A program made the position numbers and the translations under genes. The notes beneath the pieces were generated by a model. The model had not been told where the DNA came from. It saw only the letters and a program-made list of their open reading frames with translations, and ran no database searches. DNA of 64,000 nucleotides from NCBI GenBank assembly GCA_001513335.1, contig LFTO01000116.1, positions 536 to 64,535 on the forward strand. The letters are read 5' to 3'. The stretch is from Clostridiales bacterium DTU086. GTDB taxonomy: Bacteria > Bacillota > DTU086. Each line of letters begins with the position of its first letter. Position 1 is the stretch's first letter. This document shows, one piece after another, positions 9,575 to 59,242 of this stretch.

Positions 9575-9836
9575 ACCTCTACCACTTATAGAAGTGGGGG
9601 CTTCAACAATACTAATACCAAACGCATTTCCTGTTAGGGAAATACTTACCCCCAAAGGGTATGGGTTATCAGCCTGGCTTCCCAATGACAACTTTGGCCC
9701 GGTACAAGAGTTCTACTACTTCACGCACTAGGCAATCCAAGATACTTGGCTTTACTGATGGTTAGGTTTTGGAACCGGCTGCCGCAGTAGGGAACGTGGT
9801 ATGTAGCTTGGGAACAGAAGCTTTTTAGAATAGATG

Positions 9837-9868
9837 TGCAGCATTATTTTCGGTGCTGCATTTTTTTT
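9837..9868 (+). terminator. intrinsic terminator
   Basis: TGCAGCA-loop-TGCTGCA followed by T8. Confidence 0.75.
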
Positions 9869-9938
9869 CTGCCTGCGCCTTCCGGTTTACTATTGGTCCA
9901 GGATTTTTAAACTGCCCTTCATTTTATTATATATCTTA

Positions 9939-10400
9939 TTATATATCCACTTTTCTTTTATCCAGCCAGTTTAAAGTGTATGTTAAAAACAGCCCGTATG
10001 CAGAAGCAGAGATGAAGTGGGATACAGCAGCAGCGAAAGTGTGCTGTGTGAGGGTAGGAAGGTCCAACACTATGGAAACTGCATATATGAAAAACCAGGC
10101 AAATATTCCATAGATCCAGCCTTTTACCAGGTAATTGCCGCTCGTCGTTTTGAGTAACAAACTGGAAAAAATGACTCCCAGAAAACCGGCAAAGAACAAC
10201 TGTCCCAGCTGGGCAAAGACTATTTCTGGAGTATTAGCGGGAAGACGCCCGTAAATTACCACAGAAGCCCAGTCTGACAACCGTTCAAGGTGCAGTCCCA
10301 AAAGTATCGCTGTCCAATCAACTATATTCATTGCAATTCCGCCGGCAATGCCGCCGATAAACCCTGCTGTAATCCTGTCCTTAATGATTGATCCCTCCAA
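9939..10400 (-). CDS. hypothetical integral membrane protein
   Basis: 153 aa with about 4 hydrophobic helices. No recognisable motif. Confidence 0.5.
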   Translation of the reverse strand: MEGSIIKDRITAGFIGGIAGGIAMNIVDWTAILLGLHLERLSDWASVVIYGRLPANTPEIVFAQLGQLFFAGFLGVIFSSLLLKTTSGNYLVKGWIYGIFAWFFIYAVSIVLDLPTLTQHTFAAAVSHFISASAYGLFLTYTLNWLDKRKVDI

Positions 10401-10634
10401 TAAAATCCTTTTGCAGCATTATGAAGATATAATATATTGTGCATATTTTGGGAAGAGATTATTTACAATGAAGGAAAGAAGGGGCCTGATTTATGTTCTG
10501 TATTCATGGACTTAATTTTATTAGAACACTTATTAAGGCCGTCAGCAAAAGATAGGGGGAAGTTTTTTTATTTACAGACAGTATGAGCGGGGCCAAAAAA
10601 CTTGTCGGCCGGGGATAAGTAGTTACTTTCAGGC

Positions 10635-10662
10635 AAAATAAAAGACGAGGCAGAACCTCGTC
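10635..10662 (-). terminator. intrinsic terminator downstream of tRNA-Arg
   Basis: On the minus strand, GACGAGG-loop-CCTCGTC followed by a T-run (an A-run on the plus strand). Confidence 0.6.
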
Positions 10663-10680
10663 TCAATACAATTCAAAATC

Positions 10681-10757
10681 TGGTACGCCTGGGGAGACTT
10701 GAACTCCCGACCCCCGGACTCGGAATCCGTTACTCTATCCAACTGAGCTACAGGCGC
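10681..10757 (-). tRNA. tRNA-Arg (anticodon CCG)
   Basis: The reverse complement folds as a cloverleaf: acceptor GCGCCTG, D-arm GCTC/AGTTGG, anticodon loop TTCCGAG (CCG), T-arm GGGAG-TTCAAGT-CTCCC, encoded CCA. Confidence 0.9.
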
Positions 10758-10770
10758 ATATCATAAGTCT

Positions 10771-10799
10771 ATTATAATTAAAGTCCTTCAACTAGTCAA
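10771..10799 (-). promoter_or_regulatory. sigma-A promoter for tRNA-Arg (TTGACT-17-TATAAT)
   Basis: Minus strand reads TTGACTagttgaaggactttaatTATAAT, about 13 nt upstream of the tRNA 5' end. Confidence 0.75.
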
Positions 10800-11148
10800 A
10801 TTTCGGAAAGAAAAGAGCCCCTATAGTTTGATGTATGTACATTATACACCGGAAATTTAACATAGTGAAAAAATCTTTTTTTCATTGAATAATATGTGGT
10901 CTCGCCGGGGAATTAACCGTTGAGGATGGGGGAAAGCTGGTTCTAACCTGTCATCTAAGAGGAGATAGAATGTTTTTCCGGCAAACCTGTGGCGTAAAAC
11001 AAGAAGAGGACAGGTGGCGCTATTTTCAGGTAAAAAATGGTGGGGAATTAATATGGTATTTTTCCGTATTTCCCTTGCTTATTAGGAACCATTGTGCTAC
11101 TCTTGCAGTAGAATATTGTATACAAAATACCTTTTAGGAGGTTTCATG

Positions 11149-11274
11149 TATGCAGTACTTGGTTACCTGGAGTGAAGGCGAAGAAGTCGCTTATCTGATT
11201 CTGGGTGAACAGGATTTATGCCGCCTCGGAATGGACGACAAGAATTACATTATTACGGAATTCAGCACTCATTA
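11149..11274 (+). CDS. small ORF, 41 aa, hypothetical (MQYLVTWSEGEEVAYLILGEQDLCRLGMDDKNYIITEFSTH)
   Basis: AGGAGG RBS 8 nt upstream of the ATG. An intrinsic terminator follows directly. Below the 60-aa cutoff of the ORF track. Confidence 0.4.
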
Positions 11275-11315
11275 AGATTAATAATTTAGTTTCTTTATCC
11301 ATTATTGCATTTTAA

Positions 11316-11339
11316 CGCCGGTTTTCCCGGCGTTTTTTG
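11316..11339 (+). terminator. intrinsic terminator after the small ORF
   Basis: GCCGG-TTTTC-CCGGC followed by TTTTTTG. Confidence 0.7.
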
Positions 11340-11637
11340 TTTTTCTGTTGGTGCACCTCCCGGTTTTGAGCTACAGTACTTGCTCGGAATTCTAGTTATC
11401 ATTTACAATTCGCCTGCAGGGTGCTGAGGAGCTCTTTGCGCTTGGAGATCCTGCGTACCTCCTTTAGCAGGAGCAATAACTTTCAAAAAAAACGTATCCG
11501 CCAGTCGCCCCAATGAAGGCTTTGTTTTTTCTCCCCAAAGGACTTTTTTGATTGATTTAATGCTCCAGGGGGTTAGTATTGCGCCTGTGGGGAAAATTAT
11601 ATATGATTAACTTTAAATACCGCTGGAGGAAAAAAAT

Positions 11638-18929: not shown

Positions 18930-19056
18930 GATTTCGTTTATTCTAAAAGGTTGGAGGGTTCAGGGTCTAAAGGGCCTTAAGCGAGGCGGTTGTACTAGCG
19001 TTTAGAGGTCCGGTGGGCTCCTTGCCGGTGCAAAGAAGTTCTCAATACTGGGATTA

Positions 19057-19169
19057 CGAAAGCCCGTATGTATTATGGAATAGACTTGTTTCTGTTAAGC
19101 CTTGGGCGGCTTTGCCGTCGTTAACGGCGTGGGAGCTTGTCTGTAAGGAAATTATACATACGCTTAGCG
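19057..19169 (+). repeat. copy 1 of a ~113-nt imperfect long-hairpin element (structured ncRNA or MITE-like)
   Basis: The outer stem pairs CGTATGTAT...ATACATACG around an internal GGCGGC-TTT-GCCGTC hairpin. It is about 80% identical to the reverse complement of 42713-42826. Confidence 0.7.
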
Positions 19170-19418
19170 AAGAAAACGGTTGGGACCAGTGTCATCCGCA
19201 AGGGTTTACCGGAGGATCTCAGAAGCGAAGCGATGGTATTAGCACTAAAGATCCGGTGTATTGCTTGTGCGGGTGCATCGGTGCCCTCCAGATGAATCGT
19301 TTTCCCGAGTAGTTCGACGGGCGAAATTGTTCAAAATAAAAAGGAGAAACAGAAGTATATCTGTCCTCCCCTGCTGTGCAATTTTCCATTTAAAGACGCT
19401 GCTTTCCTGCCGTGGGAA

Positions 19419-19811
19419 TCAGGTCATTGAAACTCCCACAATACCTCCGCAGATGCCGGCAATGAGACATGCCAAAAGCTTTTTAATCAGAACAAAAAAT
19501 ACAAAGCTCCCCGGTGACAGAATTGTACTTACAAGTGCAACTACAATAAAGAAAATGGTTCCAATAATTATGCCATGGAGAAGCCCTCTAATCCCTGCTT
19601 CCCTGGCTCCTACAAAACTACCGAGAAATGCGCTCACTATTAAAATCAGCAGAGACGTAATGGGTAGGAGCGACTCGGATAGGGGTGTAAAATGAAAGAT
19701 TAAAGCTGAAATAAGGATTAGCAGTATTGCCGCGCATAAAGCAGAAAGAACACCTCGTCTTACCGGTCTTCCCCAAATTAACGTTGATTTGCCCAAGGGG
19801 TACACCTCCAA
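19419..19811 (-). CDS. hypothetical integral membrane protein
   Basis: 130 aa with 4 predicted TM helices. Confidence 0.5.
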   Translation of the reverse strand: MEVYPLGKSTLIWGRPVRRGVLSALCAAILLILISALIFHFTPLSESLLPITSLLILIVSAFLGSFVGAREAGIRGLLHGIIIGTIFFIVVALVSTILSPGSFVFFVLIKKLLACLIAGICGGIVGVSMT

Positions 19812-20004
19812 TAAGTTTTAGTAAACTGTATGCGTGTCTGTGGAAAATATTACAGAGTTATTACCGGCCTTGAAGGAAAGTCACCGGGAAAGTTTTTGTG
19901 TATTGTGAACAAGGGTTATTAACCTTTACGTCGAAGAATATAAGTAAGTGTAGGACATTACTACGCTTCTTTTTAGTATCTTTTCATTAGGGATATAGAG
20001 GAGG

Positions 20005-43061: not shown

Positions 43062-44075
43062 ATGATCTCTCTATCCCTGAAGGAAACAGAAAAAAGTTCC
43101 GAATGCAGCATTGATGCGGTTTTGGCTGCTGTTTGTCCTTCCATTATAAAGGATTTTTTAATGAAAATGGCTCCGGAACAAAGGAATCAAGTACAGGAAC
43201 TGCGCCTGAGACAGGACAGGCCTTTAAGCATTTTGCTGGACCAACGGGAATGTTTCTTAACGGTGAAGGGAGAGCCGACCTTTGACCCCCTGGCAGGGTA
43301 TTACATTACCAAGACCGATATTGATAGAGTCTTTCAAAGCATTACCCGCAATTCCGTATACGCCCTTGAGGAAGAACTGCGCAACGGCTATGTGACTATT
43401 GCCGGGGGCCATAGAATCGGGTTTACAGGAGAAGCTGTGGTTGTAGGGGGAAAAGTAAAAAACCTGAAAAATATATCTTGCCTCAATATCAGAATTGGGA
43501 GAGAGGTAAAAGGCTGCGCAGATAAAGTTCTGCCTTGGATAATTAACAGGCAGAATAATGCAGTTATGCACACACTAATTATTTCACCGCCAAAGTGCGG
43601 AAAGACAACCCTTCTCAGGGACATTATCCGGCAGTTAAGCAACGGTATACCCAAGCTTGGTTTCCCTGGTGTCAATGTGGGCGTAGTGGATGAAAGATCG
43701 GAGTTGGCCAGTTGTTACATGGGCCTTCCTCAAAAAGAAATAGGCATTAGAAGTGATGTCCTGGATAAATGTCCCAAAGCGGAAGGAATGTATATGCTGG
43801 TACGTTCCATGTCCCCACAGGTAATTGCCACTGATGAAATCGGGAGAAGGGAAGATGTGGCTGCAGTTCAAGAAGTCCTTAACGCAGGAATCAAATTGAT
43901 TACATCCGTTCACGGAACCAACCCGGAAGATATAAAACGGCGGCCTGTAATGGGAGAGATTATGGATATGCAGTTGTTTGAGCGACTGGTCGTTCTTGGG
44001 AGGTCCCAAGGGGTAGGTACTTTGGAAGAAGTGATCGATGGGACTACAGGAAGATCTTTGTTTCAAAGAAGGTGA
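43062..44075 (+). CDS. spoIIIAA: stage III sporulation protein AA (ATPase)
   Basis: Walker A SPPKCGKTTLLRD. Conserved SpoIIIAA layout. Confidence 0.9.
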   Translation: MISLSLKETEKSSECSIDAVLAAVCPSIIKDFLMKMAPEQRNQVQELRLRQDRPLSILLDQRECFLTVKGEPTFDPLAGYYITKTDIDRVFQSITRNSVYALEEELRNGYVTIAGGHRIGFTGEAVVVGGKVKNLKNISCLNIRIGREVKGCADKVLPWIINRQNNAVMHTLIISPPKCGKTTLLRDIIRQLSNGIPKLGFPGVNVGVVDERSELASCYMGLPQKEIGIRSDVLDKCPKAEGMYMLVRSMSPQVIATDEIGRREDVAAVQEVLNAGIKLITSVHGTNPEDIKRRPVMGEIMDMQLFERLVVLGRSQGVGTLEEVIDGTTGRSLFQRR

Positions 44076-44599
44076 GACCCATTATAAAAATCACTGCTTC
44101 GTTATTGATAATAATGTCCTGCGGAATGGCCGGGTTGATTATGGCCCATTCCTATGCTTCCAGGCCGGATCAGCTGAAAGCTCTAATTTATGCCTTAAAA
44201 ATGCTGGAAACCGAAATTGCCTATACCCTTACTCCTCTCCCGGAGGCCCTTTTTAGAGTCGGGAAAAGGGTTGGTGGTGAAATTGGTGAGTTTTTTATAT
44301 CTGTAGGCACCCAATTAAGTCACGAAAACGCACCTATATGCGGAGAGGTCTGGGATTACAGTCTAGCCGGATTGAAAGAAAGTACTTGTCTCACTACCGG
44401 CGACCTGGGTATTTTACGCAATTTTGGTAATAACCTGGGGTTATCTGACAGGGAAGACCAGATAAAAAACCTTAAGCTCACCCAGGAGCAGTTGAACAAT
44501 CATTTGTATTCTGCTGAAAAGCTCCGGGAAAAGAATCAGAGAATGTGGCGCACTGTTGGTTTTTTAGCTGGATTGGCTGTAGTGTTTATCCTTTACTAG
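44072..44599 (+). CDS. spoIIIAB: stage III sporulation protein AB
   Basis: Position in the operon. N-terminal TM helix. About 175 aa. Confidence 0.8.
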   Translation: MRPIIKITASLLIIMSCGMAGLIMAHSYASRPDQLKALIYALKMLETEIAYTLTPLPEALFRVGKRVGGEIGEFFISVGTQLSHENAPICGEVWDYSLAGLKESTCLTTGDLGILRNFGNNLGLSDREDQIKNLKLTQEQLNNHLYSAEKLREKNQRMWRTVGFLAGLAVVFILY

Positions 44600-44617
44600 A
44601 AGAAAGGAGAATCCCGA

Positions 44618-44815
44618 ATGGAAGTAGATATAATTTTCAAAATTGCTGGTATCGGCATAATAACAGCTGTTCTTCACAGTATTTTGAAAGAATTCGGAAA
44701 GCAGGAACTTGCCCAGCTCACAACCCTTGCAGGTGTTGCTGTATGCCTCCTAATGGTAATCGGTATTTTGCAGGACCTTTTTGCAATTGTCAGGACGGTA
44801 TTCCAACTTTACTAA
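44618..44815 (+). CDS. spoIIIAC: stage III sporulation protein AC
   Basis: 65-aa two-helix membrane protein, MEVDIIFKIAGIGIITAV. Confidence 0.85.
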   Translation: MEVDIIFKIAGIGIITAVLHSILKEFGKQELAQLTTLAGVAVCLLMVIGILQDLFAIVRTVFQLY

Positions 44816-44825
44816 GAGGTGTGCT

Positions 44826-45212
44826 ATGGAAATATTACAGGTTGTAGGTTTAGGGTTCATATCGGTTGCGCTCCTAACCGTGCTTAAACAGCAGAAACCG
44901 GAAATAGCAGTCCTCTTGAGCATTGCCGCAGGCGTTACAATTTTTTTGTTTGTCCTGGGCAAGGTTTCCAGCATTATACAGGTCTTGGAAAATCTAGCCC
45001 GCAGTGCTGATGTAAACAACTTTTATTTGACTACGATACTAAAAATTGTCGGTATTGCCTATATTGGTGATTTTGGAGCCCAGGTGTGCAGGGATGCTGG
45101 AGAGTCGGCTATAGCGTCAAAAGTTGAATTTGCAGCCAAGGTACTGGTACTGATAGTAGCTCTGCCCATCGTGGTAGGCTTGCTGGAGACAATAACCAGG
45201 CTGCTTCCATGA
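44826..45212 (+). CDS. spoIIIAD: stage III sporulation protein AD
   Basis: MEILQVVGLGFISVALL start. The ORF track begins at 44781 in the same frame. Confidence 0.85.
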   Translation: MEILQVVGLGFISVALLTVLKQQKPEIAVLLSIAAGVTIFLFVLGKVSSIIQVLENLARSADVNNFYLTTILKIVGIAYIGDFGAQVCRDAGESAIASKVEFAAKVLVLIVALPIVVGLLETITRLLP

Positions 45213-46396
45213 GATTGCTTATGAAAAGACTAGTCATTTTTTTGGTAATAATATCTAGTACATTGCTTTTTCCTGTTAGTGCTCCAGCACAGGAAGAAAC
45301 GGATCTGCCGGCCACAAACCTGGAGAGGCAGCTCGAAAGCCTCGACCTTTCCGAGCTCCAGCAGTTTATTGAGGAAATTGAAAAGGATGTGGGTTCATAT
45401 ATTCCCGATTTTGGTCTGGAGAGTGTGATTGAGGACATTCGCAGCGGAGATCTTGACTTTAATTTTGCCGGTTTTATAAAAGGCTTAATAGAATACTTGT
45501 TTCATGAATTAATTGCCCATTCTTCCCTTTTAGGCCGTTTAGTAGTTCTGGCAGTAATCTCTGCCGTCCTATATAACCTTCTTGATGCCTTTGAAGGTTC
45601 GACAGGTAGAATAGCTTACACTGTTGTCTATCTTGTACTGATTACTATTGCCCTGGGGTCATTTTCTGCTGCTGTAAAAATCGGGAGTGAGGCAATTACC
45701 CAAATGGTGAATTTTGTACAAGCGCTCCTTCCTGTCCTGTTGACCCTTCTTGCGGCAATTGGGGGTATCAGCTCTGCGGCTATTTTACATCCTTTTATTA
45801 TTGTTGCACTGGGCCTTCTAGGAACACTGATAAAAAATTTTGTGTTTCCTCTGATTTACCTGTCAGCAGTACTGGGAATTGTAAACCATATTTCTGAAAG
45901 GTTTAACGTTTCACGGCTTGCAGGTCTGATGAAACAAATCAGCGTTGCTTCTTTAGGTATTTTCCTGACTCTTTTTGTGGGTTTTTTAGGTTTACAGGGG
46001 ATAGCCGGTGCCGTTGCTGACAGTGTGACGTTAAAAACTGCCAAATTTATGGCAGGGACATTTGTCCCCGTGGTTGGGAAAATACTGGCCGATGCCACGG
46101 AAGTAGTACTGGGTACTTCACTGTTGATAAAAAATGCTGTTGGAGTTGTAGGAATAGTAATCCTGTTTATTATTTGTGTTTTTCCGGTGATCAAGATTAT
46201 AGCCATGGTGCTGGTCTACAGGCTGGCGGCAGCTTTGGTACAGCCTATAGGGGATAGCAAAATTGCCGGAGCCCTTGATACAATGGCAGGTATGCTTACT
46301 CTGGTATTTGCCTCGGTTGTAGCAGTTGGATTCATGTTTTTCCTGGCAATTGCAGTAATTATCGGACTGAGCAATATTAACGTTATGCTGAGGTAG
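45209..46396 (+). CDS. spoIIIAE: stage III sporulation protein AE
   Basis: Signal peptide plus a polytopic membrane domain. 395 aa. Operon position. Confidence 0.85.
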   Translation: MRLLMKRLVIFLVIISSTLLFPVSAPAQEETDLPATNLERQLESLDLSELQQFIEEIEKDVGSYIPDFGLESVIEDIRSGDLDFNFAGFIKGLIEYLFHELIAHSSLLGRLVVLAVISAVLYNLLDAFEGSTGRIAYTVVYLVLITIALGSFSAAVKIGSEAITQMVNFVQALLPVLLTLLAAIGGISSAAILHPFIIVALGLLGTLIKNFVFPLIYLSAVLGIVNHISERFNVSRLAGLMKQISVASLGIFLTLFVGFLGLQGIAGAVADSVTLKTAKFMAGTFVPVVGKILADATEVVLGTSLLIKNAVGVVGIVILFIICVFPVIKIIAMVLVYRLAAALVQPIGDSKIAGALDTMAGMLTLVFASVVAVGFMFFLAIAVIIGLSNINVMLR

Positions 46397-46420
46397 TCTT
46401 TTTATATAGAGGGGATAATA

Positions 46421-47044
46421 ATGGATGTCTTAAAAGAAATGGTCCGGAACCTGGCAGCAATAATAATCCTTACTTCCTTCCTGGAAATGCTCCTTCCAAA
46501 TACCAAAATGAAAGGCTATACCCGGCTTATATTAGGGCTTTTTGTAATCGTAATCGTACTCAATCCCGTCCTGAATTTTTTGGACAGCGGTACGGGATAT
46601 AGTATTCAGGCCTGGTCATATCCCTCAAAAAACCATGAACTGAATGCCATTCTTGAGGATGCCCAGGAAATTACTGCACAATCTCAGAGATCGATATTTA
46701 ACGAGTACCGCAGTAAAGTGGAACAGCAGATCGCAGCCCTGGTGAGACTTTCCCCGGAAGTGAGCCGTGCGGACGTTGAAATAAAAATTGGGGAAGGCAT
46801 CTCCCTGGCAGAAGAAGGCAGGATTGAAAGAGTTAAAATCACCGCTCATGTTAAGGATCGGGATACTGCTGGAAAAGGGGAAAGTAAACATGAAAATAGC
46901 AATTCCATTGAGTTGGACAGCAGATATGATCCTGTAAAAAATCGGCAACAGGAGCGGGAAGAACTGAGAGAAAGGATCAGGTCAATAGTTGGGGATTTCT
47001 TCGGGTTGAAGCTGGACCAGGTTGATGTGCAACTGGAAAATTAG
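46421..47044 (+). CDS. spoIIIAF: stage III sporulation protein AF
   Basis: Two N-terminal TM helices. 207 aa. Operon position. Confidence 0.8.
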   Translation: MDVLKEMVRNLAAIIILTSFLEMLLPNTKMKGYTRLILGLFVIVIVLNPVLNFLDSGTGYSIQAWSYPSKNHELNAILEDAQEITAQSQRSIFNEYRSKVEQQIAALVRLSPEVSRADVEIKIGEGISLAEEGRIERVKITAHVKDRDTAGKGESKHENSNSIELDSRYDPVKNRQQEREELRERIRSIVGDFFGLKLDQVDVQLEN

Positions 47045-47061
47045 ATGGAGGTGCTGTTGTT

Positions 47062-47676
47062 ATGAAAAAAAAAGCTGGCCAGTATATTAATTTTTCCAGG
47101 AAAAAGCTGCCGCTCCTTATAGTTTTATTTCTTATTGGTGTCTTACTATTGGTTGTCAGTAGCTTTATTCCCAGCGGCCAACGGGGCCATGATGTGGTTG
47201 GGGAATTACCTGTAGTGGGAAAAGAGCAGGAAAGTACAGCCGACCCTGAAAGTACTTCCGTGCTGGCCCGAGCAGAAACAGAAATGGAAAACCGGTTGGA
47301 GGCAATTCTATCTACAATTGAAGGGGTCGGAAGTGTTTCGGTAAGTGTAACCCTGGAAAACGGTCCGGAGTATATTTATGCAGTAAATGAAAATATTAAC
47401 GAAAGTAAAATAGAAGAAAAAGATAACAGCGGGGGCCACCGTATTACTACAGAAACCACAAACAGTGACCAGATGGTACTGGCTCAGCCGGCGGATATGG
47501 GCGGGGGCCAGCAGCCGGTGGTTGTAAAAGAAATTAAACCTAAGATTGCCGGTGTTCTTGTTGCTGCCGAAGGTGCGGATAATGCTGAAACCAGGATAAA
47601 CTTGTCCAGGGCTGTCCAAACCGTGTTAAATATTCCGGCTCATAAAGTAAGCGTACTGCAAAAAAACATTGAATAG
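47062..47676 (+). CDS. spoIIIAG: stage III sporulation protein AG
   Basis: N-terminal TM helix. Conserved C-terminal AGVLVAAEGADNAETRINLSRAV. Confidence 0.85.
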   Translation: MKKKAGQYINFSRKKLPLLIVLFLIGVLLLVVSSFIPSGQRGHDVVGELPVVGKEQESTADPESTSVLARAETEMENRLEAILSTIEGVGSVSVSVTLENGPEYIYAVNENINESKIEEKDNSGGHRITTETTNSDQMVLAQPADMGGGQQPVVVKEIKPKIAGVLVAAEGADNAETRINLSRAVQTVLNIPAHKVSVLQKNIE

Positions 47677-47691
47677 GAAGGAGGGATAGAG

Positions 47692-48306
47692 GTGATGATT
47701 TTCACCAGTCGAAGGACCGCATTAGTAGTAGCATTGTTTATTATAGCCCTTTTCTTGGTGATAGGGTTTATTATCTATGGGACAATACCCAACCTAAAGG
47801 ATGATAAAACCCCTGTGCACGGCGAAACAATTATTAACGGCAAAGAAAATCCCGGAGAAGGTTCAGAGGAAGAGGAAGAGGGGACGGTCGTTACAGGGGA
47901 AAAAAGCAGTGTCCCTGGAAAACTTCCTATTGAAATTAAAGGGGAGCAGACAAGCTCCGATGATGATTTTTTTGCCAATTACCGCCTGGACAGGGAAAGG
48001 GTCCGGGGCCACCAGGTAGAACTGCTCCAAGAAGTAATCAATGATCCCAATTCAGATGCGGGCATGCGCAAGGAAGCACAGGATAGGTTGATTCAAATTT
48101 CCGAACGTATGGACAAAGAACTGCAGCTGGAGGCACTTATTAAGGCAAAAGGATTTAACGAGGCGGCGCTATTTATTCAACCGGAGTCAGCCACTGCAAT
48201 TCTGGAAAAGGACGGGATGGTTGAGAGCGACGTAGCAGTTGTGGCAGATATGATTTCCCGTGTTACAGGATATAAGCTGGAAGACATCGTGGTAATTCCC
48301 AAATAG
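47692..48306 (+). CDS. spoIIIAH: stage III sporulation protein AH
   Basis: N-terminal TM helix. Acidic linker. YscJ/FliF-like C-terminal domain. Operon position. Confidence 0.8.
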   Translation: MMIFTSRRTALVVALFIIALFLVIGFIIYGTIPNLKDDKTPVHGETIINGKENPGEGSEEEEEGTVVTGEKSSVPGKLPIEIKGEQTSSDDDFFANYRLDRERVRGHQVELLQEVINDPNSDAGMRKEAQDRLIQISERMDKELQLEALIKAKGFNEAALFIQPESATAILEKDGMVESDVAVVADMISRVTGYKLEDIVVIPK

Positions 48307-48349
48307 TGTATATAATTCTGAAATATTATGTATACACGTTGTAAAGATA

Positions 48350-48378
48350 TTGCATAAACCTACATAGGTTTATATAAT
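48350..48378 (+). promoter_or_regulatory. sigma-A promoter TTGCAT-17-TATAAT with a perfect palindrome AAACCTA-CA-TAGGTTT in the spacer (candidate operator)
   Basis: Hexamers at 48350-48355 and 48373-48378. The palindrome lies at 48356-48371. Confidence 0.5.
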
Positions 48379-48576
48379 AACCGTAGTACTTCAGGTTGGT
48401 TTAATGCCAACCTTTAATTTTAGCTGCTGTCAACACCGCATTCCTTGTTGCTGATATTCCTGGGTTAATTTGCTGCGACAAGGTAAAAAATATATACATC
48501 TTTTCCTGAAATTTGTAATTGAGATACCACAAGGGAGGAGATTTTCAGGAGTTTAATAAAAGGGGGAGTTTTTCTA

Positions 48577-50451
48577 GTGAAAAAAATCGGTATAACAGAC
48601 ACCACTCTTAGAGATGCTCACCAGAGCTTGTGGGCAACAAGAATGAGCACGGCAGATATGATACCCATTTTGGAGAGAATTGATTCTCTGGGTTATTCCT
48701 CTGTAGAAGTTTGGGGGGGAGCAACCTTTGATGTTTGCCTGAGGTACCTTAACGAATGTCCCTGGGAAAGGTTGCGTATTCTTAAAAAATACTTTAAGAG
48801 GACACCTCTACAGATGCTTTTGCGTGGGCAGGCATTAGTAGGTTATACCCATTACCCTGATGATGTGGTGGACAGCTTTGTAGCCAAATCCGTGGAAAAC
48901 GGAATTGACATTATCCGGATTTTTGATGCCCTCAATGACCTCCGGAACATGGAAAAGTCAATTACAGTTGCCAAGAGAGAAGGGGCTCATGTTCAGGGTG
49001 CCGTTGTGTACACAGTAAGCCCTGTTCACAGCATTGAGCATTATGTTGACGTAGCACTGCAGCTCCAGGAGATGGGAGTTGACTCCCTCTGTGTAAAAGA
49101 TATGGCTGGTTTATTGACTCCTTATGTTGCCGGAAAGCTGGTTAAACTCCTTAAGGAAAAGTTGAACATACCCATACACCTTCACAGCCATTATGTTGGT
49201 GGGCTGGCTTTTGGGGCCTACATCAAAGGTATTGAAGCAGGTGCGGATAATATTGACTGTGCTTCCGTTCCTTTGGCCTTCGGTTCTTCCCAGCCTCCTG
49301 TGGAGACCATCGTTCGTACATTGAGTGAAAGTGGCTATGATACAGGTCTTGATCTACACGACTTGTTTGAAGTTGCCAGCTACTTTGAAGACCTGCGCAA
49401 GAAAAACGGTTTCCAGAGAGGGGTTACCCGGATTACTGACATGGGGGTTTTTGAACACCAGGTACCCGGGGGAATGATATCTAACCTGGTGAGCCAGCTT
49501 AAGGAACAGAACGCTGCAGAAAAGATCAATGAGGTACTGAGAGAGATTCCCAAGGTGAGGAAGGAACTTGGGTATCCGCCCCTCGTTACCCCTACCAGCC
49601 AGATAGTAGGAACCCAGGCAGTATTAAACGTTTTGACTAAGGAAAGATATAAGCTTATCCCCGGCGAAGTTAAAGCATACGTAAGGGGGGCCTACGGGAA
49701 ACCACCGGCAAAAATTGACGAGAAAATACGTGAAAAGATAATGGGTGACGAGCCCATATACGAGGGAAGACCGGCAGATCTATTAGAGCCTGGGTTGGAG
49801 AAAGCCAGGGAAGAAATAAAGGACATGGTATCTTCCGAAGAAGACGTGCTGTCCTATGCACTGTTCCCACAGATAGCCAGAAAATTTTTCTCTAATCCCT
49901 GTGAAACTAAGTTTGAATCTGCTAAGCAAGAAGTGGCTGGCTCCATGGATCATATTGTCCTTGAGGAGGTCGCTGGTATAGAAGAGGAGGACGAAAGTAT
50001 GAAATTGACTGATATTAAAGAACTCTTAAAGGCGCTGAACGAAACGGGTACTACCGAGTTTAACTATGAAGGTGACGGTATGCGGCTGGTAGTACGGAGA
50101 GGAAAAGTTGTTGCTGTTGAAGATGAAAAAGGGATAGACATTTCCGTGGAAGAAAAACCTGCTGTGGAAGCTCCCCCTGGGGAACCTCCAGTAGAGGAAG
50201 TGGAAGATGACATTGTTGTTATAGAAGCCCCTATGGTAGGTACCTTCTATCGTGCTCCCGCCCCCGATGCACCGCCTTTTGTGGAAGTCGGTTCAAAGGT
50301 AAAGAAAGGACAGACCCTGTGCATTGTTGAGGCCATGAAGCTGATGAATGAAATTGAGACTGATGTAGACGGCGAAGTTGTTGAAATTCTAGTTGAGAAT
50401 GCGCAGCCTGTTGAATATGGCTGTCCACTGTTCAAAATAAAGAGAGGGTAA
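48577..50451 (+). CDS. pyruvate carboxylase subunit B/oxaloacetate decarboxylase alpha-like (5S carboxyltransferase fused to a biotin carboxyl carrier domain)
   Basis: GTG start. TIM-barrel carboxyltransferase region [12 protein letters not shown]-terminal biotinyl domain [13 protein letters not shown]. Confidence 0.85.
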
Positions 50452-50454
50452 ATT

Positions 50455-51795
50455 ATGTTTTCTAAACTGCTGATTGCAAACAGGGGTGAGATAGCAGTAC
50501 GGATTATCAGGGCGTGCCAGGAGTTAGGAATCGCTACAGTGGCTGTCTATTCTCAATGTGATAAAGAAGCATTACACGTTGAACTTGCTGATGAAGCTGT
50601 ATGCATCGGGCCCAATCCCTCTTCCCAAAGCTATTTGAATATGGACAATATTCTTATGGCTGCCAAGACAAAAGGGGTTGATGCCATTCACCCGGGGTAT
50701 GGATTTCTTGCTGAGAATGATGTATTTGCCGAAAAGTGCGAACAGGAAGGGTTTGTTTTTGTGGGTCCTTCACCGGAAGCGATCAGGCTCATGGGTGCTA
50801 AGGCTGCCGCCAGGGAAACCATGGTCTCTGCCGGTGTTCCTGTAGTTCCCGGTTCCCAGGGACTGGTAGGCAGTGCCGCAGAGGCTGCGGCATTGGCAGG
50901 GCAGATTGGATATCCTGTGATGATCAAGGCTGCTTCCGGAGGCGGCGGTAAAGGAATGCGTGTGGCCTATAACGAAGAAGAGGTAATCAAGGGGTATCAG
51001 ACTGCACGTGGGGAGGCCGGTGCCGCTTTTGGAAATTCCGACCTCTATCTGGAGAAATTCATTCAGGAACCACGACATGTGGAGATTCAAATACTGGCAG
51101 ATAAATTTGGCAATATTATCTACCTGGGAGAACGTGATTGTTCTCTGCAGCGCAGGAATCAAAAGCTGTTGGAGGAATCACCTTCTCCTGCAGTGGATCC
51201 GGATCTGCGCCGGCGAATGGGAGAATGTGCCGTTAAAGCTGCCAAAGCTGCAAATTACTGCAGCGCAGGCACTGTAGAATTCTTATTGGACAAGGAAAAA
51301 AATTTCTACTTTATGGAGATGAATACACGTATTCAAGTAGAACACCCGGTTACAGAAATGGTTACCGGAATAGACCTGATTAAAGAACAGATTAGAATCG
51401 CGTCAGGGGAGCCCTTACGCCTAAAACAGGAAGACGTTCAATTCAGGGGCTGGGCTATTGAGTGCAGAATCAATGCTGAAGATCCGGAAAAGGGATTTCG
51501 TCCCTGCCCGGGAACAATAACCCGTTATCATGCCCCCGGAGGGAACGGTGTCCGTGTGGATACCGCCATATATACAGGTTACAGCATACCGCCTTTCTAT
51601 GATTCCATGATTGCAAAACTTATTGTTTGGGCTCCTACCCGTGAGGAAGCTGTACAGAGGATGAAACGCTCCCTCCAGGAATTAAAAATTGAAGGTGTCA
51701 GCACCACAGCATCTTTCCATTTAAAAGTTTTGGACAACCCGTTCTTTAATAAAGGGGAAGTATTTACCAACTTTATTGAAACTTACATGGTCTGA
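50455..51795 (+). CDS. accC: biotin carboxylase (AccC/pyruvate carboxylase subunit A)
   Basis: ATP-grasp motifs: [33 protein letters not shown]. Confidence 0.9.
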
Positions 51796-51826
51796 GAGAA
51801 TTTAAGTAACCCGCGTAAAGAAAAGG

Positions 51827-51876
51827 AACCCGGCTTTACCTGTGCGTAAATAGCCGGGTTTGTTTTCAGTTTTTTA
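51827..51876 (+). terminator. intrinsic terminator
   Basis: AACCCGGCT-loop-AGCCGGGTT followed by a T-rich tract. Confidence 0.75.
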
Positions 51877-51959
51877 CAAACAAGCCATTAAAATCGAATT
51901 AGCTACAGCAATCCTTCCGCAATTCGGGTAAAATATAGAAAAGTGGAGGAGGGTTTAAT

Positions 51960-52340
51960 ATGGAGAATAAAATCTCTGGAGAAAGCGGAAACCTGAGAAT
52001 ATCTGAAGAAGTGGTGGCAGTAATTGCCGGCATCGCAACTACTAATGTTGAAGGAGTTGCGGGTATGAGCGGCGGCATAGCCGGTGGTATTGCGCAGCTT
52101 TTAGGGAAAAACAGCTTTGCCAAAGGGGTAAAAGTTAGTGTCCATGAAAAAGAGGCGGTTATCGATATTTTTGTCATCGTGAATTTCGGAGTTCGTATTC
52201 CCGAGGTAGCTTTTAAAATCCAGGAAAATGTCAAAAAGTCTGTGGAAAACATGACCGGTTTGCAGGTCAAGGAAGCAAACGTCCACGTTCAGGGTGTAAT
52301 TGCCGAAAAGGAATCCTTAGAAGAGGATACTGAAGAATAG
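51960..52340 (+). CDS. Asp23/Gls24-family alkaline shock protein
   Basis: ISEEVVAVIAGIATTNVEGVAGMSGG is typical of Asp23. Confidence 0.85.
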   Translation: MENKISGESGNLRISEEVVAVIAGIATTNVEGVAGMSGGIAGGIAQLLGKNSFAKGVKVSVHEKEAVIDIFVIVNFGVRIPEVAFKIQENVKKSVENMTGLQVKEANVHVQGVIAEKESLEEDTEE

Positions 52341-52393
52341 ATATACTTGTAGTATTATGCCACAAAAGACAACATCTGTCGGAGGTGTAATAT

Positions 52394-52798
52394 TTGAGCA
52401 GGAGAGTTGCAAGGGAAAAGGCCCTGCAGGTCTTATATGAGGTGGAAATGGGAGGCTCCGATATACAGGAAGCCTTTGAAAACTTCTACGGAGAGCTGAA
52501 CCTTGGTCCCCACAGCAGAAAGTTCGCTCAGGTCTTAGCCAGTGGAACTTGGGGGCAAAGGGAGGAAATAGACCGGCTGATTGGGAAATATACACGAAGA
52601 TGGAAAATTGAGCGCCTGGCAGCAATCGACAGGAATATTCTCCGCCTGGCTGTATTTGAAATGACTACTCAGCCGGACATACCACACGAAGTCTCTATTA
52701 ATGAAGCCGTTGAGCTGGCTAAAAAGTACAGTACCGATAAAGCTGCTTCTTTTGTTAATGCCATTCTTGACGGTATCAGTAAAGAGATAAGGCAGTGA
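52394..52798 (+). CDS. nusB: transcription antitermination factor NusB
   Basis: RRVAREKALQVLYEVEM..LAAIDRNILRLAVFE. Confidence 0.9.
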   Translation: MSRRVAREKALQVLYEVEMGGSDIQEAFENFYGELNLGPHSRKFAQVLASGTWGQREEIDRLIGKYTRRWKIERLAAIDRNILRLAVFEMTTQPDIPHEVSINEAVELAKKYSTDKAASFVNAILDGISKEIRQ

Positions 52799-54904: not shown

Positions 54905-55155
54905 CAAAAGAAACCAACGAGTTAAGTTTCGATGCCGCGTTAAAAGAGCTCGAGGACAGAGTTAAAAAGCTGGAAGATGGGCAACTTCCCCTTGAAGAAG
55001 CTCTTGAGTGTTTCAAAGAAGGCATCTATTTAGTAAGAATATGCAACTCAAAGCTGAAAGATTCTGAAACAGTTATCCGGCAGCTGGTTGAAGAAGAGGA
55101 CGGCAGTATCAGCGAAACCGTGCCGGAAATAAACCGGGGCGGTGATTTTAATTGA
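54889..55155 (+). CDS. xseB: exodeoxyribonuclease VII small subunit
   Basis: 88 aa. FDAALKELEDRVKKLEDGQLPLEEAL. Confidence 0.9.
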   Translation: MEEELTKETNELSFDAALKELEDRVKKLEDGQLPLEEALECFKEGIYLVRICNSKLKDSETVIRQLVEEEDGSISETVPEINRGGDFN

Positions 55156-56036
55156 ATATCAAGGAATACCTTGCAGAAAAGAAAGCAGTAATTGATGCGG
55201 CGCTAGATGAAATTCTTCCTGCAGAAGATGTTAAACCGCAGACCATTCATAAGGCAATGCGCTACAGCGTTTTTGCCGGCGGCAAAAGACTGCGGCCTAT
55301 TCTGGTAATGGCTTCCGCAGAGGCCGTGGGCGGAAAAGGTAATGATGTCCTCCCTGCAGCCTGTGCATTGGAGATGATACATTCATATTCCCTTATTCAT
55401 GATGACCTACCAGCAATGGATGATGATGATTACCGGCGGGGGATGCTTACCAATCATAAGGTATTTGGGGAGGCAATGGCTATCCTGGCGGGGGATGCCC
55501 TCCTGACCCATGCCTTTTATGTTCTTTCTCATTGCTTAAAATATTTTCCAGCTGAATCAGTTAACCAGGTTGTTGGTGAGGTTTCGAAGGCTGCCGGTAC
55601 TTTTGGAATGGTTGGCGGACAGGTGGTCGACATTGAGTCAGAGGGAAAAGACATTTCCAGGGAGGAATTGGATTATATTCATGAAAATAAAACTGCGGCC
55701 CTTTTTGTAGCTTCCGTCCGTACAGGGGGAATTCTTGCAGGTGCGAACAGCGTACAGATGGACGCTCTGACTGACTACGCAAGGCACCTGGGGCTGGCAT
55801 TTCAGATTACTGATGATATTTTAGACATCACCGGAGATTCCGGCAAACTGGGCAAAAATACCGGGAGTGATACACGCAAAAAAAAGGTAACTTTTCCTCT
55901 TCTTTACGGTCTTGAAGAGTCAAGAAAAATGGCACTGGATGAGAGTAGAAAAGCTGGAGAAATTGTCCGGACACTGGGCAACAGGGCAAAGCCCCTGGAA
56001 GAAATTGTCCTTTATTTGGTTTCAAGGGACTTTTAG
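55152..56036 (+). CDS. ispA: farnesyl diphosphate synthase (geranyltranstransferase)
   Basis: FARM LIHDDLPAMDDDDYRRG and SARM FQITDDILD motifs. Confidence 0.9.
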   Translation: MNIKEYLAEKKAVIDAALDEILPAEDVKPQTIHKAMRYSVFAGGKRLRPILVMASAEAVGGKGNDVLPAACALEMIHSYSLIHDDLPAMDDDDYRRGMLTNHKVFGEAMAILAGDALLTHAFYVLSHCLKYFPAESVNQVVGEVSKAAGTFGMVGGQVVDIESEGKDISREELDYIHENKTAALFVASVRTGGILAGANSVQMDALTDYARHLGLAFQITDDILDITGDSGKLGKNTGSDTRKKKVTFPLLYGLEESRKMALDESRKAGEIVRTLGNRAKPLEEIVLYLVSRDF

Positions 56037-56051
56037 GAGTTTTTTCACCAA

Positions 56052-56081
56052 TTGAAAAAACTTACGATTTCATGGTATAAT
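56052..56081 (+). promoter_or_regulatory. strong extended -10 sigma-A promoter (TTGAAA-18-TGGTATAAT)
   Basis: TTGAAA at 56052-56057. TGgTATAAT at 56073-56081. It drives the about 660-nt non-coding transcript. Confidence 0.7.
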
Positions 56082-56087
56082 ATATCC

Positions 56088-56748
56088 TGTGTAAATAGGG
56101 GTGGCGCAGTATTCTAGTCAAGTTTCATTACTCTGAAGGCGGGCCTAAAAATCCGTCAAAGGGCACATCGATGAAGTTCCTGGTGGTGGCTGCTGACGCC
56201 CAGTCGGGGGTTGCTGCTGGGAGTTAAGGGGTTGGGGCGATCTGCAAAGGCATGCAGGCGTTGACCCTAGCCCCGTGGAGACCCAAGTGCGTGGTGCAAA
56301 AACATATATTTTGATTACGGCTTGGGAGTAAACCTGTATTCGGTACGGAATAGTGCTGGGTACAGTGTAGCCTGCCTTGAGCGGCTCTGGCGGAGACGCA
56401 GAAAAAGGCAGTTATTGGGAGAGGCCTAACCCAATGATTGTCTTGGTTGAAACCTTTGCTGCAAAAGAGGCTAGGAGTAAATGCAACTTGTTGAAGAAAA
56501 TTCCTAGACTGTTTGCTTCGAAAGGCAAGGTGTGTCAGGGATTAAAGTGTGTGCTAAGTGGTAATCCAGTCCTGCTATCAATAGCAGACCTTTCCTTAAA
56601 GGGAAACCGCTGTTTCGGTGACGGGCAGTGGAAAGGTGGGAAACCCTGCTGGACCTAAGCCGCAAAGTTTACCTGACTCACTGCCACCCGGATACGAGAA
56701 TCCTAAAGACGGGGATAGGCTTCCTCGTCTTTCGTTCTATGTGCGGTA
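56088..56748 (+). ncRNA. probable OLE RNA (ornate large extremophilic RNA)
   Basis: About 660 nt with no credible ORF, lying between ispA and an OapA-like membrane gene followed by dxs. This is the known OLE context. It has its own strong promoter and ends in a hairpin GACGGGGA..TCCTCGTC followed by TTTCGTTCT. I did not verify the sequence motifs from memory. Confidence 0.6.
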
Positions 56749-56783
56749 AAATCTATTATTTCTCTAAAAAGTGAGGGTAAAAG

Positions 56784-57374
56784 TTGAAAGGGAACATCTT
56801 GCCCCATGCACTTAAAAACGGAATCTTAATAGGACTTGGGACATTAGTTTTGTCCGTTATTTTTAATTTAGGGTCACAATTTATGTTGGACTTTCTCCAT
56901 TCTATTATTTTTAAATTTATTCTTTTATTTATCATTATACTTATAGGAGTGTTTTTTGATATTATTGGGGTTTCAGCTGCAGCGGCAAGTGAAGGTCCAG
57001 CCCATGCACAGGCAGCAACCCGAACATTTGGTGCCAGGCAAGCGGTTAAAATAATACGCAACGCAGATCGTGTCTCCAGCTTCTGTAATGATGTTGTTGG
57101 AGACGTGTGCGGTATTTTAAGCGGGGCAATTGGTACTGCTATTCTTTTTGAACTGATATTAAATTCTGGAGGTGTGGAGGAGCTGGTTTTTAGCACCTTG
57201 ATGACTGCCTCAATTGCTTCTGTAACTGTTGGTGGAAAGGCTGCTGGAAAAAGTTTTGCTATTGCTAATGCCAACGATATAATACTAAAGGTAGGAATGT
57301 TCATGGCGGTTATAGAAAGAACACTTGGAATCACCCTGTTTGGCAGTGGAGTGAAAAAAGGGAGGACAAAATGA
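56784..57374 (+). CDS. oapA: OapA-like small polytopic membrane protein (OLE-associated protein A candidate)
   Basis: 196 aa with about 4 TM helices, directly between the putative OLE RNA and dxs. TTG start. Confidence 0.55.
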
Positions 57375-59242
57375 GCTCTATTTTGGATAAGGTGAACAGT
57401 CCTAAAGATCTAAGGCACCTGTCCACCGCGGAAATTAAACAGCTGGCACAAGAGTTAAGGAACTTAATAATTGAGACAGTATCTCATACAGGGGGGCATT
57501 TAGCTTCCAGTTTGGGAGTAGTTGAACTTACTTTGGCTTTACACAGTGTATTTGACACACCTAAAGATAAAATAATCTGGGACGTTGGCCACCAGTGCTA
57601 TGCACATAAAATTCTCACCGGTAGAAAAAACTCCTTTTCTACCCTTCGACAATACGGCGGCATAAGTGGTTTTCCAAAGCGGGAAGAGAGTATTTTTGAT
57701 GTTTTCGAAACCGGCCACTCCAGCACTTCAATATCTGCTGCCCTGGGAATGGCACTTGCCCGTGACCACAAAGGTGAGGATTATAACGTTATAGCAGTTA
57801 TCGGAGACGGCTCACTGACCGGAGGAATGTCTTTTGAGGCTTTGAACTATGCCGGTGATTTAGGATGCAACCTTATTGTGGTCCTCAATGATAATAAGAT
57901 GTCAATTGGCAGGAACGTAGGGGCATTATCCCAGTATTTGAGCCGGTTAAGAACTGATCCGGCCTACTTTAAAAGTAAAGAAGAAATGGAAGTCTTCATG
58001 AAACGCCTGCCTTACGGCCACCGATTCCTCAAGTTGGCAGAAAGACTGAAAGATGGAATAAAGTACCTTATTATACCGGGCATCATCTTTGAGGAACTGG
58101 GGTTTACCTACCTGGGACCTATTGACGGCCATGACCTTGAGGCTGTAAAATCTGTCCTCTCCAGCACCAAAACCCTTAAAGGGCCTGTAATAGTTCACCT
58201 GGTTACCAAAAAAGGTAAAGGTTATCCTCCGGCGGAAGAAAAACCTGACCTGTTTCACGGTGTTGGTTCCTTTGCTGTTAACACAGGAAAACCGACAAAA
58301 AAGGAAGGACCTCCCACATATACAAAAGTGTTTGCTGACACTTTAATCAGGTTGGCAGAAAACAGACCGGAAGTTGTCGCTATTACTGCGGCCATGCCCG
58401 GGGGGACAGGGTTGGATTTATTTGCAAAACACTATCCTGAAAGGTACTATGATGTAGGGATTGCAGAGCAAAACGCCGTTACAGTTGCCGCAGGAATGGC
58501 TTCCCAGGGCTTAAAACCTGTGGTTGCTATTTATTCTACTTTTTTGCAAAGGGCATATGACCAGGTGATCCATGATGTATGCATGCAAAAACTCCCCGTC
58601 GTTTTTGCCCTGGACAGAGCAGGTATCGTGGGAGAAGACGGGGAAACTCACCAGGGAGTATTTGATCTGTCCTACCTCAGGCCAATTCCCAATATTGTGG
58701 TAATGACTCCGAAAGATGAAAATGAACTCCGGCATATGCTGGCTACTGCTCTCGACCACGAAGGGCCAATAGCTGTCCGCTATCCCAGAGGAAAGGGAAT
58801 AGGAGTACCTCTGGATGAGGAAATTACTTCTATCCCCATTGGGAAAGCCGTTGTAGAAAAACAGGGGAGTGATGCGGCTATATTTGCCGTTGGCCCCCAT
58901 GTATATACAGGTCTGGCAGCCAGCGATGAATTGTCGCGAATAGGAATCAGTGCGGGAGTTGTCAACTGCAGGTTCGTTAAGCCTTTGGACTCCCAACTGA
59001 TTATCGAAACTGCCCGTAAGGTAAAGCTGATCGTGACTGTAGAAGAAAACGTTTTAGGCGGGGGTTTTGGCTCCGGAATACTGGAACTGTTGACCCAGCA
59101 TGGTATTGACAACGTGTCTGTCGTAAGAATCGGGTTGCCGGACTGCTTTATCCAGCATGGTGCTCCTGACATATTGCGTAAGGAATTTGGTCTTACAGTG
59201 GAGTCAATTGTCAATACTATAAGCGACAGGCTGGGATCTTGA
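57371..59242 (+). CDS. dxs: 1-deoxy-D-xylulose-5-phosphate synthase
   Basis: TPP motif [15 protein letters not shown]; the start [13 protein letters not shown] is typical of Dxs. 623 aa. Confidence 0.95.

Follow-up and report, generated by a model that had tools for sequence, protein, structure and literature searches.

We identify a full-length ole gene at 56085-56703 and, directly after it at 56784-57374, the oapA gene for the obligate membrane partner of OLE RNA, in a 64,000-nucleotide stretch of DNA from Clostridiales bacterium DTU086 (hereafter, the window), and we hold this assignment to be nearly certain. OLE RNA, OapA, and the order of genes at the locus have been described since 2006, and in these respects nothing sets this element apart from the rest of a well-known family. 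Its P13 hairpin differs from that of H. halodurans OLE RNA: it is cut back to an unbulged stem of 6 bp capped by a UCAA loop, and therefore lacks the primary determinants of OapB binding. This trimmed hairpin is shared by the closest relatives of the window RNA, and we propose that it is a derived trait of the lineage.

Genes at the locus follow the order xseA-xseB-ispA-OLE-oapA-dxs-tlyA, which is canonical for OLE (Table 1). The oapA stop codon and the ATG start of dxs share an ATGA overlap. A first-pass annotation, made from the letters alone, had read the gap between ispA and a small membrane gene as an OLE locus in its ispA-RNA-oapA-dxs context, and this reading is borne out by a full-length match to the Rfam OLE model RF01071 and by the OapA-family neighbour. 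The gap itself is real, although its size was given as 700 nt and is in fact 747 nt, as ispA ends at 56036 and the next start lies at 56784; the interval holds no credible gene. The membrane gene and dxs that were expected downstream are found in that order, the first as a gene for a 196-aa protein and the second by its match to TIGR00204, and the RNA region has a GC content of 50.7% against 44.5% for the whole window.

Table 1. Features of the ole-oapA locus, in window coordinates
Feature	Position	Strand	Description
ispA (farnesyl diphosphate synthase; polyprenyl synthetase)	55152..56036	+	Upstream neighbour; NF045485, 380 bits
ole promoter	56052..56081	+	-35 TTGAAA (56052-56057), 18-nt spacer, extended -10 TGGTATAAT (56073-56081)
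OLE RNA gene, full-length type	56085..56703	+	Rfam RF01071; conserved core ~56101 to 56686
J4a/5 kink-turn strand	56164..56180	+	CACAUCGAUGAAGUUCC; consensus kept at conserved positions
93-aa ORF, spurious, not a gene	56377..56658	+	TTG start; wholly inside OLE RNA
L9.3 loop	56419..56429	+	Palindrome GGCC (56424-56427)
P13 hairpin, atypical	56572..56587	+	Perfect 6-bp stem CUGCUA/UAGCAG, loop UCAA
P14.1 hairpin	56609..56628	+	GUGA (GNRA) tetraloop; GNRA in 53/54 OLE RNAs parsed (listed loci)
Terminator-like hairpin	56705..56732	+	AAAGACGGGGA-UAGGCU-UCCUCGUCUUU then CGUUCUAUGU; 11 pairs
oapA	56784..57374	+	196-aa membrane protein; TTG start at 56784; GAGGG ribosome-binding site 56773-56777
dxs (1-deoxy-D-xylulose-5-phosphate synthase)	57371..59242	+	Downstream neighbour; TIGR00204, 871 bits

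The covariance model search proposed in the first-pass annotation gave an unambiguous result. RF01071 matches 56085-56703 with 513.7 bits, about ten times the gathering threshold of 50 bits, and the E-value of 9e-148 excludes a chance match. Positions 1-616 of the 616 in the model align, untruncated, over 619 nt, with P7-P9 included. OLE RNAs of relatives score 479-550 bits with the same model, and since the score of the window copy falls inside this range we regard it as typical. The fold was also checked independently of the Rfam model, by aligning the window RNA with 17 other OLE RNAs (n=18) in MAFFT and deriving a consensus with RNAalifold. This yielded a consensus of 166 pairs, of which 91 show compensatory changes, counted where one or more sequences differ on both sides yet keep the pairing; such a pattern characterises structured RNAs, not coding regions. 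A permissive Rfam scan of the whole window returned no RNA other than OLE and two tRNAs.

In its details the window RNA resembles the full-length OLE RNAs of H. halodurans and C. acetobutylicum: it shares their length, P1-P15 architecture, conserved sequence blocks, kink-turn strands, L9.3 GGCC palindrome, and P14.1 GNRA loop, and it likewise has its own proximal promoter, oapA directly downstream, and ispA and dxs in the neighbourhood. Along with the J4a/5 strand, the kink-turn partner strands J5/6 (56219-56231) and J6/7 (56273-56284) agree with the family consensus. The J4a/5 strand is the site of OapC/YbxF in H. halodurans (PMC9723947, PMC12286853), and by analogy these strands form a putative OapC site in the window RNA. 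The L9.3 palindrome corresponds to bridge B3, a symmetric kissing loop that connects the two copies of the RNA in the cryo-EM structure of the OLE dimer; covariation among GGCC, GAUC, and AGCU has been reported for it (PMC12286853).

The neighbourhood is equally characteristic of the family. A conserved OLE 16-mer retrieved at least 120 genome loci; nhmmer detected OLE in 89 of those listed, while the other 31 of the 120 listed lack an OLE match and look like chance matches to the 16-mer. Of the 70 listed loci with at least 800 nt of downstream sequence, 68 have OLE followed immediately by an oapA homolog in the same orientation; dxs lies within 2 kb downstream in 42 of 53 listed loci, and ispA within 1.5 kb upstream in 47 of 65.

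Three loci deserve separate mention. Both in L012 (an Ammoniphilus MAG, 4370-5160) and in L037 (a Bacillota MAG, 1626-2457), OLE is followed by dxs after ~200 nt, and no oapA homolog was detected between the two, which is unusual; OapA is regarded as indispensable. L117 (1902-2334), from a MAG labelled Fibrobacter sp., carries an OLE RNA with xseA-xseB-ispA upstream under a non-Bacillota assignment, which probably reflects either misbinning or transfer. Rare OLE matches outside Bacillota have been noted before (PMC11332333).

The sequence and the predicted structure of the protein downstream of the RNA mark it as an OapA-family, CNNM-like helical membrane protein. It has no Pfam or NCBIfam match, even at E=10, and no significant match to PF01595. 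Database searches returned 632 homologs of ~190-210 aa, several of them named 'CNNM transmembrane domain-containing protein' at the source, and the protein is 30-43% identical, end to end, to 28 OLE-adjacent proteins. When these 28 were aligned with the window protein and 9 database matches, all nine invariant residues were found to be kept (D59, G62, A94, D103, G106, D107, G114, K152, and K156); they fall in the motifs FDxxG, RNAD, CNDVxGD, and TVGGKAxGK. Positive charges in the sequence comprise the invariant K152 and K156, R92, which is nearly invariant, and the basic tail at the C-terminus, and a conserved cluster of positive charge in OapA has been proposed as its RNA contact. The closest OapA, from a JGI metagenome, is 93% identical. 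At residue 73, beside the conserved Pro72, the window protein and this relative have Ala (PAHAQAA), a position at which more than 90% of OapA sequences have Phe (PFHAMAA).

An AlphaFold model of the window protein, built from 73 homologs (pLDDT 79.8, pTM 0.71), consists of helices only, the long ones spanning 5-37, 41-67, 94-127, and 131-161. Together with the hydrophobic segments in the sequence, these four helices agree with the four-TM membrane protein of the first-pass annotation, and we predict a multi-pass helical membrane protein with four TM helices. All of the top six PDB fold matches to the model are CNNM/CorB/CorC transmembrane domains (MtCorB 7m1t/7m1u, TpCorC 7cff/7cfg), with Foldseek probabilities of 1.00 for four MtCorB chains and 0.84-0.85 for two CorC entries. 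The similarity is of moderate strength, with query-normalised TM-scores of 0.46-0.54 and a Foldseek E of 0.014, and when 38 OapA sequences were searched as a profile against PDB, only chance matches came up. As Pfam, NCBIfam, and the PDB sequence profile yielded nothing, the link between OapA and CNNM proteins is based on this moderate fold similarity and on the literature, in which OapA is described as a four-helix membrane protein with weak homology to the CNNM domain of MpfA and without CBS or CorC domains (PMC11332333, PMC12265935). The window protein likewise ends after its membrane domain. Its predicted fold resembles the transmembrane domains of MtCorB (7m1t) and TpCorC (7cfg), as in the CNNM/DUF21 domain of the MpfA/CorB/CorC Mg2+ transporters; it differs from that family in lacking both a significant PF01595 match and the CBS/CorC domains. 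By description, not by alignment, it is also like H. halodurans OapA (WP_010898928.1), being ~196 aa long, all-helical, and encoded directly after ole. The recurrence of a homolog 3' of OLE across the listed loci, the nine invariant residues, and the CNNM-like fold together answer the question of OapA conservation that the first-pass annotation had raised.

Transcription of ole would start from a promoter of its own. The near-consensus extended -10 promoter of the first-pass annotation stands: TTGAAA-18-TATAAT matches 11 of 12 hexamer positions and carries the TG of an extended -10, and TGnTATAAT is invariant in four relatives (L121-L124) even though the surroundings between ispA and OLE have diverged. 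The transcription start is predicted near 56088. In H. halodurans the proximal ole promoter has been validated experimentally (PMC3413148). At the other end, the hairpin that had been noted is present, with 11 pairs, and conserved; the U tract that follows it (CGTTCTATGT) is moderate to weak. The stem AAAGACGGGGA/UCCUCGUCUUU is invariant in clade relatives and the loop is variable. Given the weak U tract, a role of the hairpin in termination is uncertain, and it is probably either a leaky terminator or a stabiliser of the OLE 3' end. It is also a point of difference from other OLE loci, as a strict equivalent is found in ~29% of those listed: under a strict definition, 21 of 72 listed loci have a hairpin with a U-rich tract in the 200 nt that follow OLE, whereas the frequency among random 200-nt pieces is 20 of 351, and the feature is therefore enriched, not universal.

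A promoter scan found no promoter-like site between the hairpin and oapA. Since none intervenes, oapA most likely relies on read-through of the hairpin, as does dxs unless a site within the 3' part of oapA is used (57256-57283, TTGCTA-16-TATAAT, matching 10 of 12 positions and ~90 nt before the dxs start). This second site could drive dxs apart from ole-oapA read-through. Partial read-through at the hairpin would leave the RNA in excess over the protein.

The same arrangement, with a structured RNA immediately ahead of oapA-dxs and in the same orientation, a terminator-like hairpin at its end, and no promoter-like site from there to oapA, might instead describe a cis-acting leader, either a riboswitch or an attenuator, and not a stand-alone RNA. 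We consider this very unlikely. At ~600 nt and 166 pairs the RNA far exceeds any known leader, the low frequency of the strict hairpin and U tract among the listed loci means that attenuation is not family-wide, and OLE RNAs are known as stable, abundant, membrane-localised RNAs that act with OapA (PMC3413148, PMC12265935).

The P13 hairpin is where the window RNA departs from the best-studied example. In H. halodurans, the GNRA tetraloop of P13 and a single bulged nucleotide are required for binding of OapB, for which they form the primary site, and the tetraloop docks into P12.2, locking the P12.2-P15 four-way junction (PMC7936274). P13 of the window RNA has neither a GNRA tetraloop nor a bulged nucleotide. 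While the OLE call of the first-pass annotation holds, this non-canonical tip had gone unnoticed there. We surveyed the loops of P13 and P14.1 in 54 OLE RNAs from the listed loci, parsed by sequence anchors and folded by minimum free energy. A GNRA tetraloop closes P13 in 45 of the 54, and at least one of the nine non-GNRA folds still holds a GNRA sequence that the fold has mispaired; among these parsed RNAs the window has the sole short non-GNRA loop of its kind.

Closer relatives place the trimmed hairpin in a lineage. The relatives with OapA proteins that share 64% identity or more with that of the window (L121-L129) all have a short P13 of 4-6 bp with variable, AU-rich loops (UUUA, UUC, AUAAAA, and others), and the trimmed form is common to at least seven distinct clade sequences. 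Stems within the clade covary (CUGCUA/UAGCAG, CUGCUG/CAGCAG, CUGUAU/AUACAG, CUGCA/UGCAG). Outgroups (L130, L131, L132, L088, and L100) retain a GNRA P13 loop and an unpaired extra nucleotide in the stem. Because it is clade-wide and its stem covaries, we interpret the trimmed P13 as a derived trait under selection and not as decay.

The opposite interpretation, that this ole gene is decaying and that its truncated P13 marks lost function, could appeal to P13, which lacks the GNRA tetraloop and bulge that most OLE RNAs possess, and to the rare defective ole genes that have been mentioned (PMC11332333). It is less likely even than a cis-acting leader: the covariance score lies within the range of the relatives, every other conserved block is intact, oapA is intact with all invariant residues kept, and covariation of the P13 stem in the clade indicates selection for pairing.

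OapB probably does not dock at P13 in the lineage of the window, as judged from the missing nucleotides, and because the main OapB determinants are absent, the composition of the H. halodurans particle is not transferable wholesale. A precedent is OLE variant 1 of the TANB77 clade, which often lacks the OapB site as well, namely the terminal nucleotides of P13 (Fernando & Breaker 2024, PMC11332333). OapB itself is present in only ~60% of OLE-bearing species and absent from ~40% (PMC11332333). The P13 GNRA loop and bulge are therefore dispensable, being missing from variant 1, with OapB missing from ~40% of OLE species. The window RNA and variant 1 otherwise differ: P7, P8, and P9 are shortened in variant 1 and full length in the window RNA, and variant 1 hosts are reduced-genome gut symbionts (PMC11332333), whereas the window host carries a spoIIIA sporulation operon.

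That operon belongs to a Bacillus-type block upstream of the locus (43062-52798), which runs through spoIIIAA...spoIIIAE, a gene for a carboxylase with a biotin-carrier domain, accC, an asp23-like gene, nusB, and folD; the gene order of the window is Bacillus-type overall (spoIIIAA/AE, accC, nusB, folD, xseAB). From this block the host appears to be a spore-forming member of the Bacillota. OLE hosts are typically Bacillota that are anaerobes, extremophiles, or spore formers, and by OapA homologs and listed loci the nearest relatives of the window are Peptococcaceae and Clostridia MAGs. Among 24 small ORFs of the window inspected by eye, none is a plausible oapB or oapC, genes that are usually located in the ribosomal-protein region. 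Two further intervals of the window, 9575-11637 (~2.1 kb) and 18930-20004 (~1.1 kb), hold no convincing ORF, no Rfam match except a tRNA, and weak repeats only; the first contains only a tRNA-Arg(CCG) on the minus strand.

These observations lead us to a tentative proposal, which we consider somewhat less probable than its negation, that in a free-living, spore-forming sub-lineage of the Bacillota an OLE RNA of otherwise full length has exchanged its P13 GNRA loop and bulge for a short stem with an unconstrained loop, and that the OLE particle there operates with no OapB docked at P13, OapB being either absent or bound only at the GUGA loop of P14.1. In H. halodurans the P14.1 GNRA loop is a weak secondary OapB site.

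A small protein encoded within the RNA, namely the 93-aa ORF, is effectively refuted as an explanation of this region and has the least chance of the readings considered here: the ORF runs uninterrupted in the window as well as in two related metagenome contigs, for which the JGI gene calls include a product of 93 residues (L121 715-996 and L122 756-1037, equivalent to window 56377-56658), and tblastn reports 'protein-level' similarity among relatives, but stops or frameshifts break the frame in seven relatives (L123, L124, L126, L127, L130, L088, and L100), no Pfam or NCBIfam family matches, there is no ribosome-binding site, GC is flat over codon positions (0.46/0.48/0.49) when neighbouring genes show the usual position bias, and the conservation is explained by the RNA, whose helices carry compensatory substitutions and whose model spans the whole ORF. 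The first-pass annotation was thus right to find no plausible ORF in the gap. With the frame broken in other relatives, we regard the JGI calls as a recurrent false annotation, and we flag this error so that a 93-aa "protein" within OLE in public metagenome contigs can be recognised.

With the region established as an OLE RNA gene, its likely behaviour can be extrapolated from characterised relatives. OLE RNA has been reported to be transcribed from its own promoter, to be highly abundant with a half-life of ~3 h, and to have alcohol and cold phenotypes (PMC3413148); it forms a homodimer with a kissing loop (PMC12286853), for which a membrane model has been presented (PMC12265935), and it helps cells to withstand short-chain alcohols and cold as well as raised Mg2+ and poor carbon sources (PMC3413148, PMC10898510, PMC12286853, PMC12265935). 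By analogy with H. halodurans and C. acetobutylicum, the window locus would produce an abundant and stable transcript of ~650 nt (~56088 to 56740), which would dimerise by way of RNA-RNA bridges, the GGCC kissing loop among them. Dimers of OapA would anchor the RNA to the membrane, and the resulting OLE-OapA particle may help the cell to deal with alcohol and cold, with excess Mg2+, and with poor carbon sources.

The mechanism that we favour over others is a more specific hypothesis, to which we give slightly less than even chances: the particle may be an RNA-protein counterpart of the MpfA/CorB-type CNNM Mg2+ exporters, in which OapA would supply the membrane domain and OLE RNA the regulatory role of the CBS/CorC domains. 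A relationship between OapA and MpfA, and their anticorrelation, have been reported (PMC11332333).

Rfam-based annotation would label this locus automatically, and its identification as such adds little that is new, although the reading of promoter, gap, and synteny made with no tools proved correct. The small clade of full-length OLE RNAs without the P13 site for OapB could offer a natural comparison for the composition of the OLE particle. Should our tentative proposal on OapB be true, this lineage would provide a natural dissection of the OLE functions that require OapB, outside the reduced-genome symbionts in which loss is already known.
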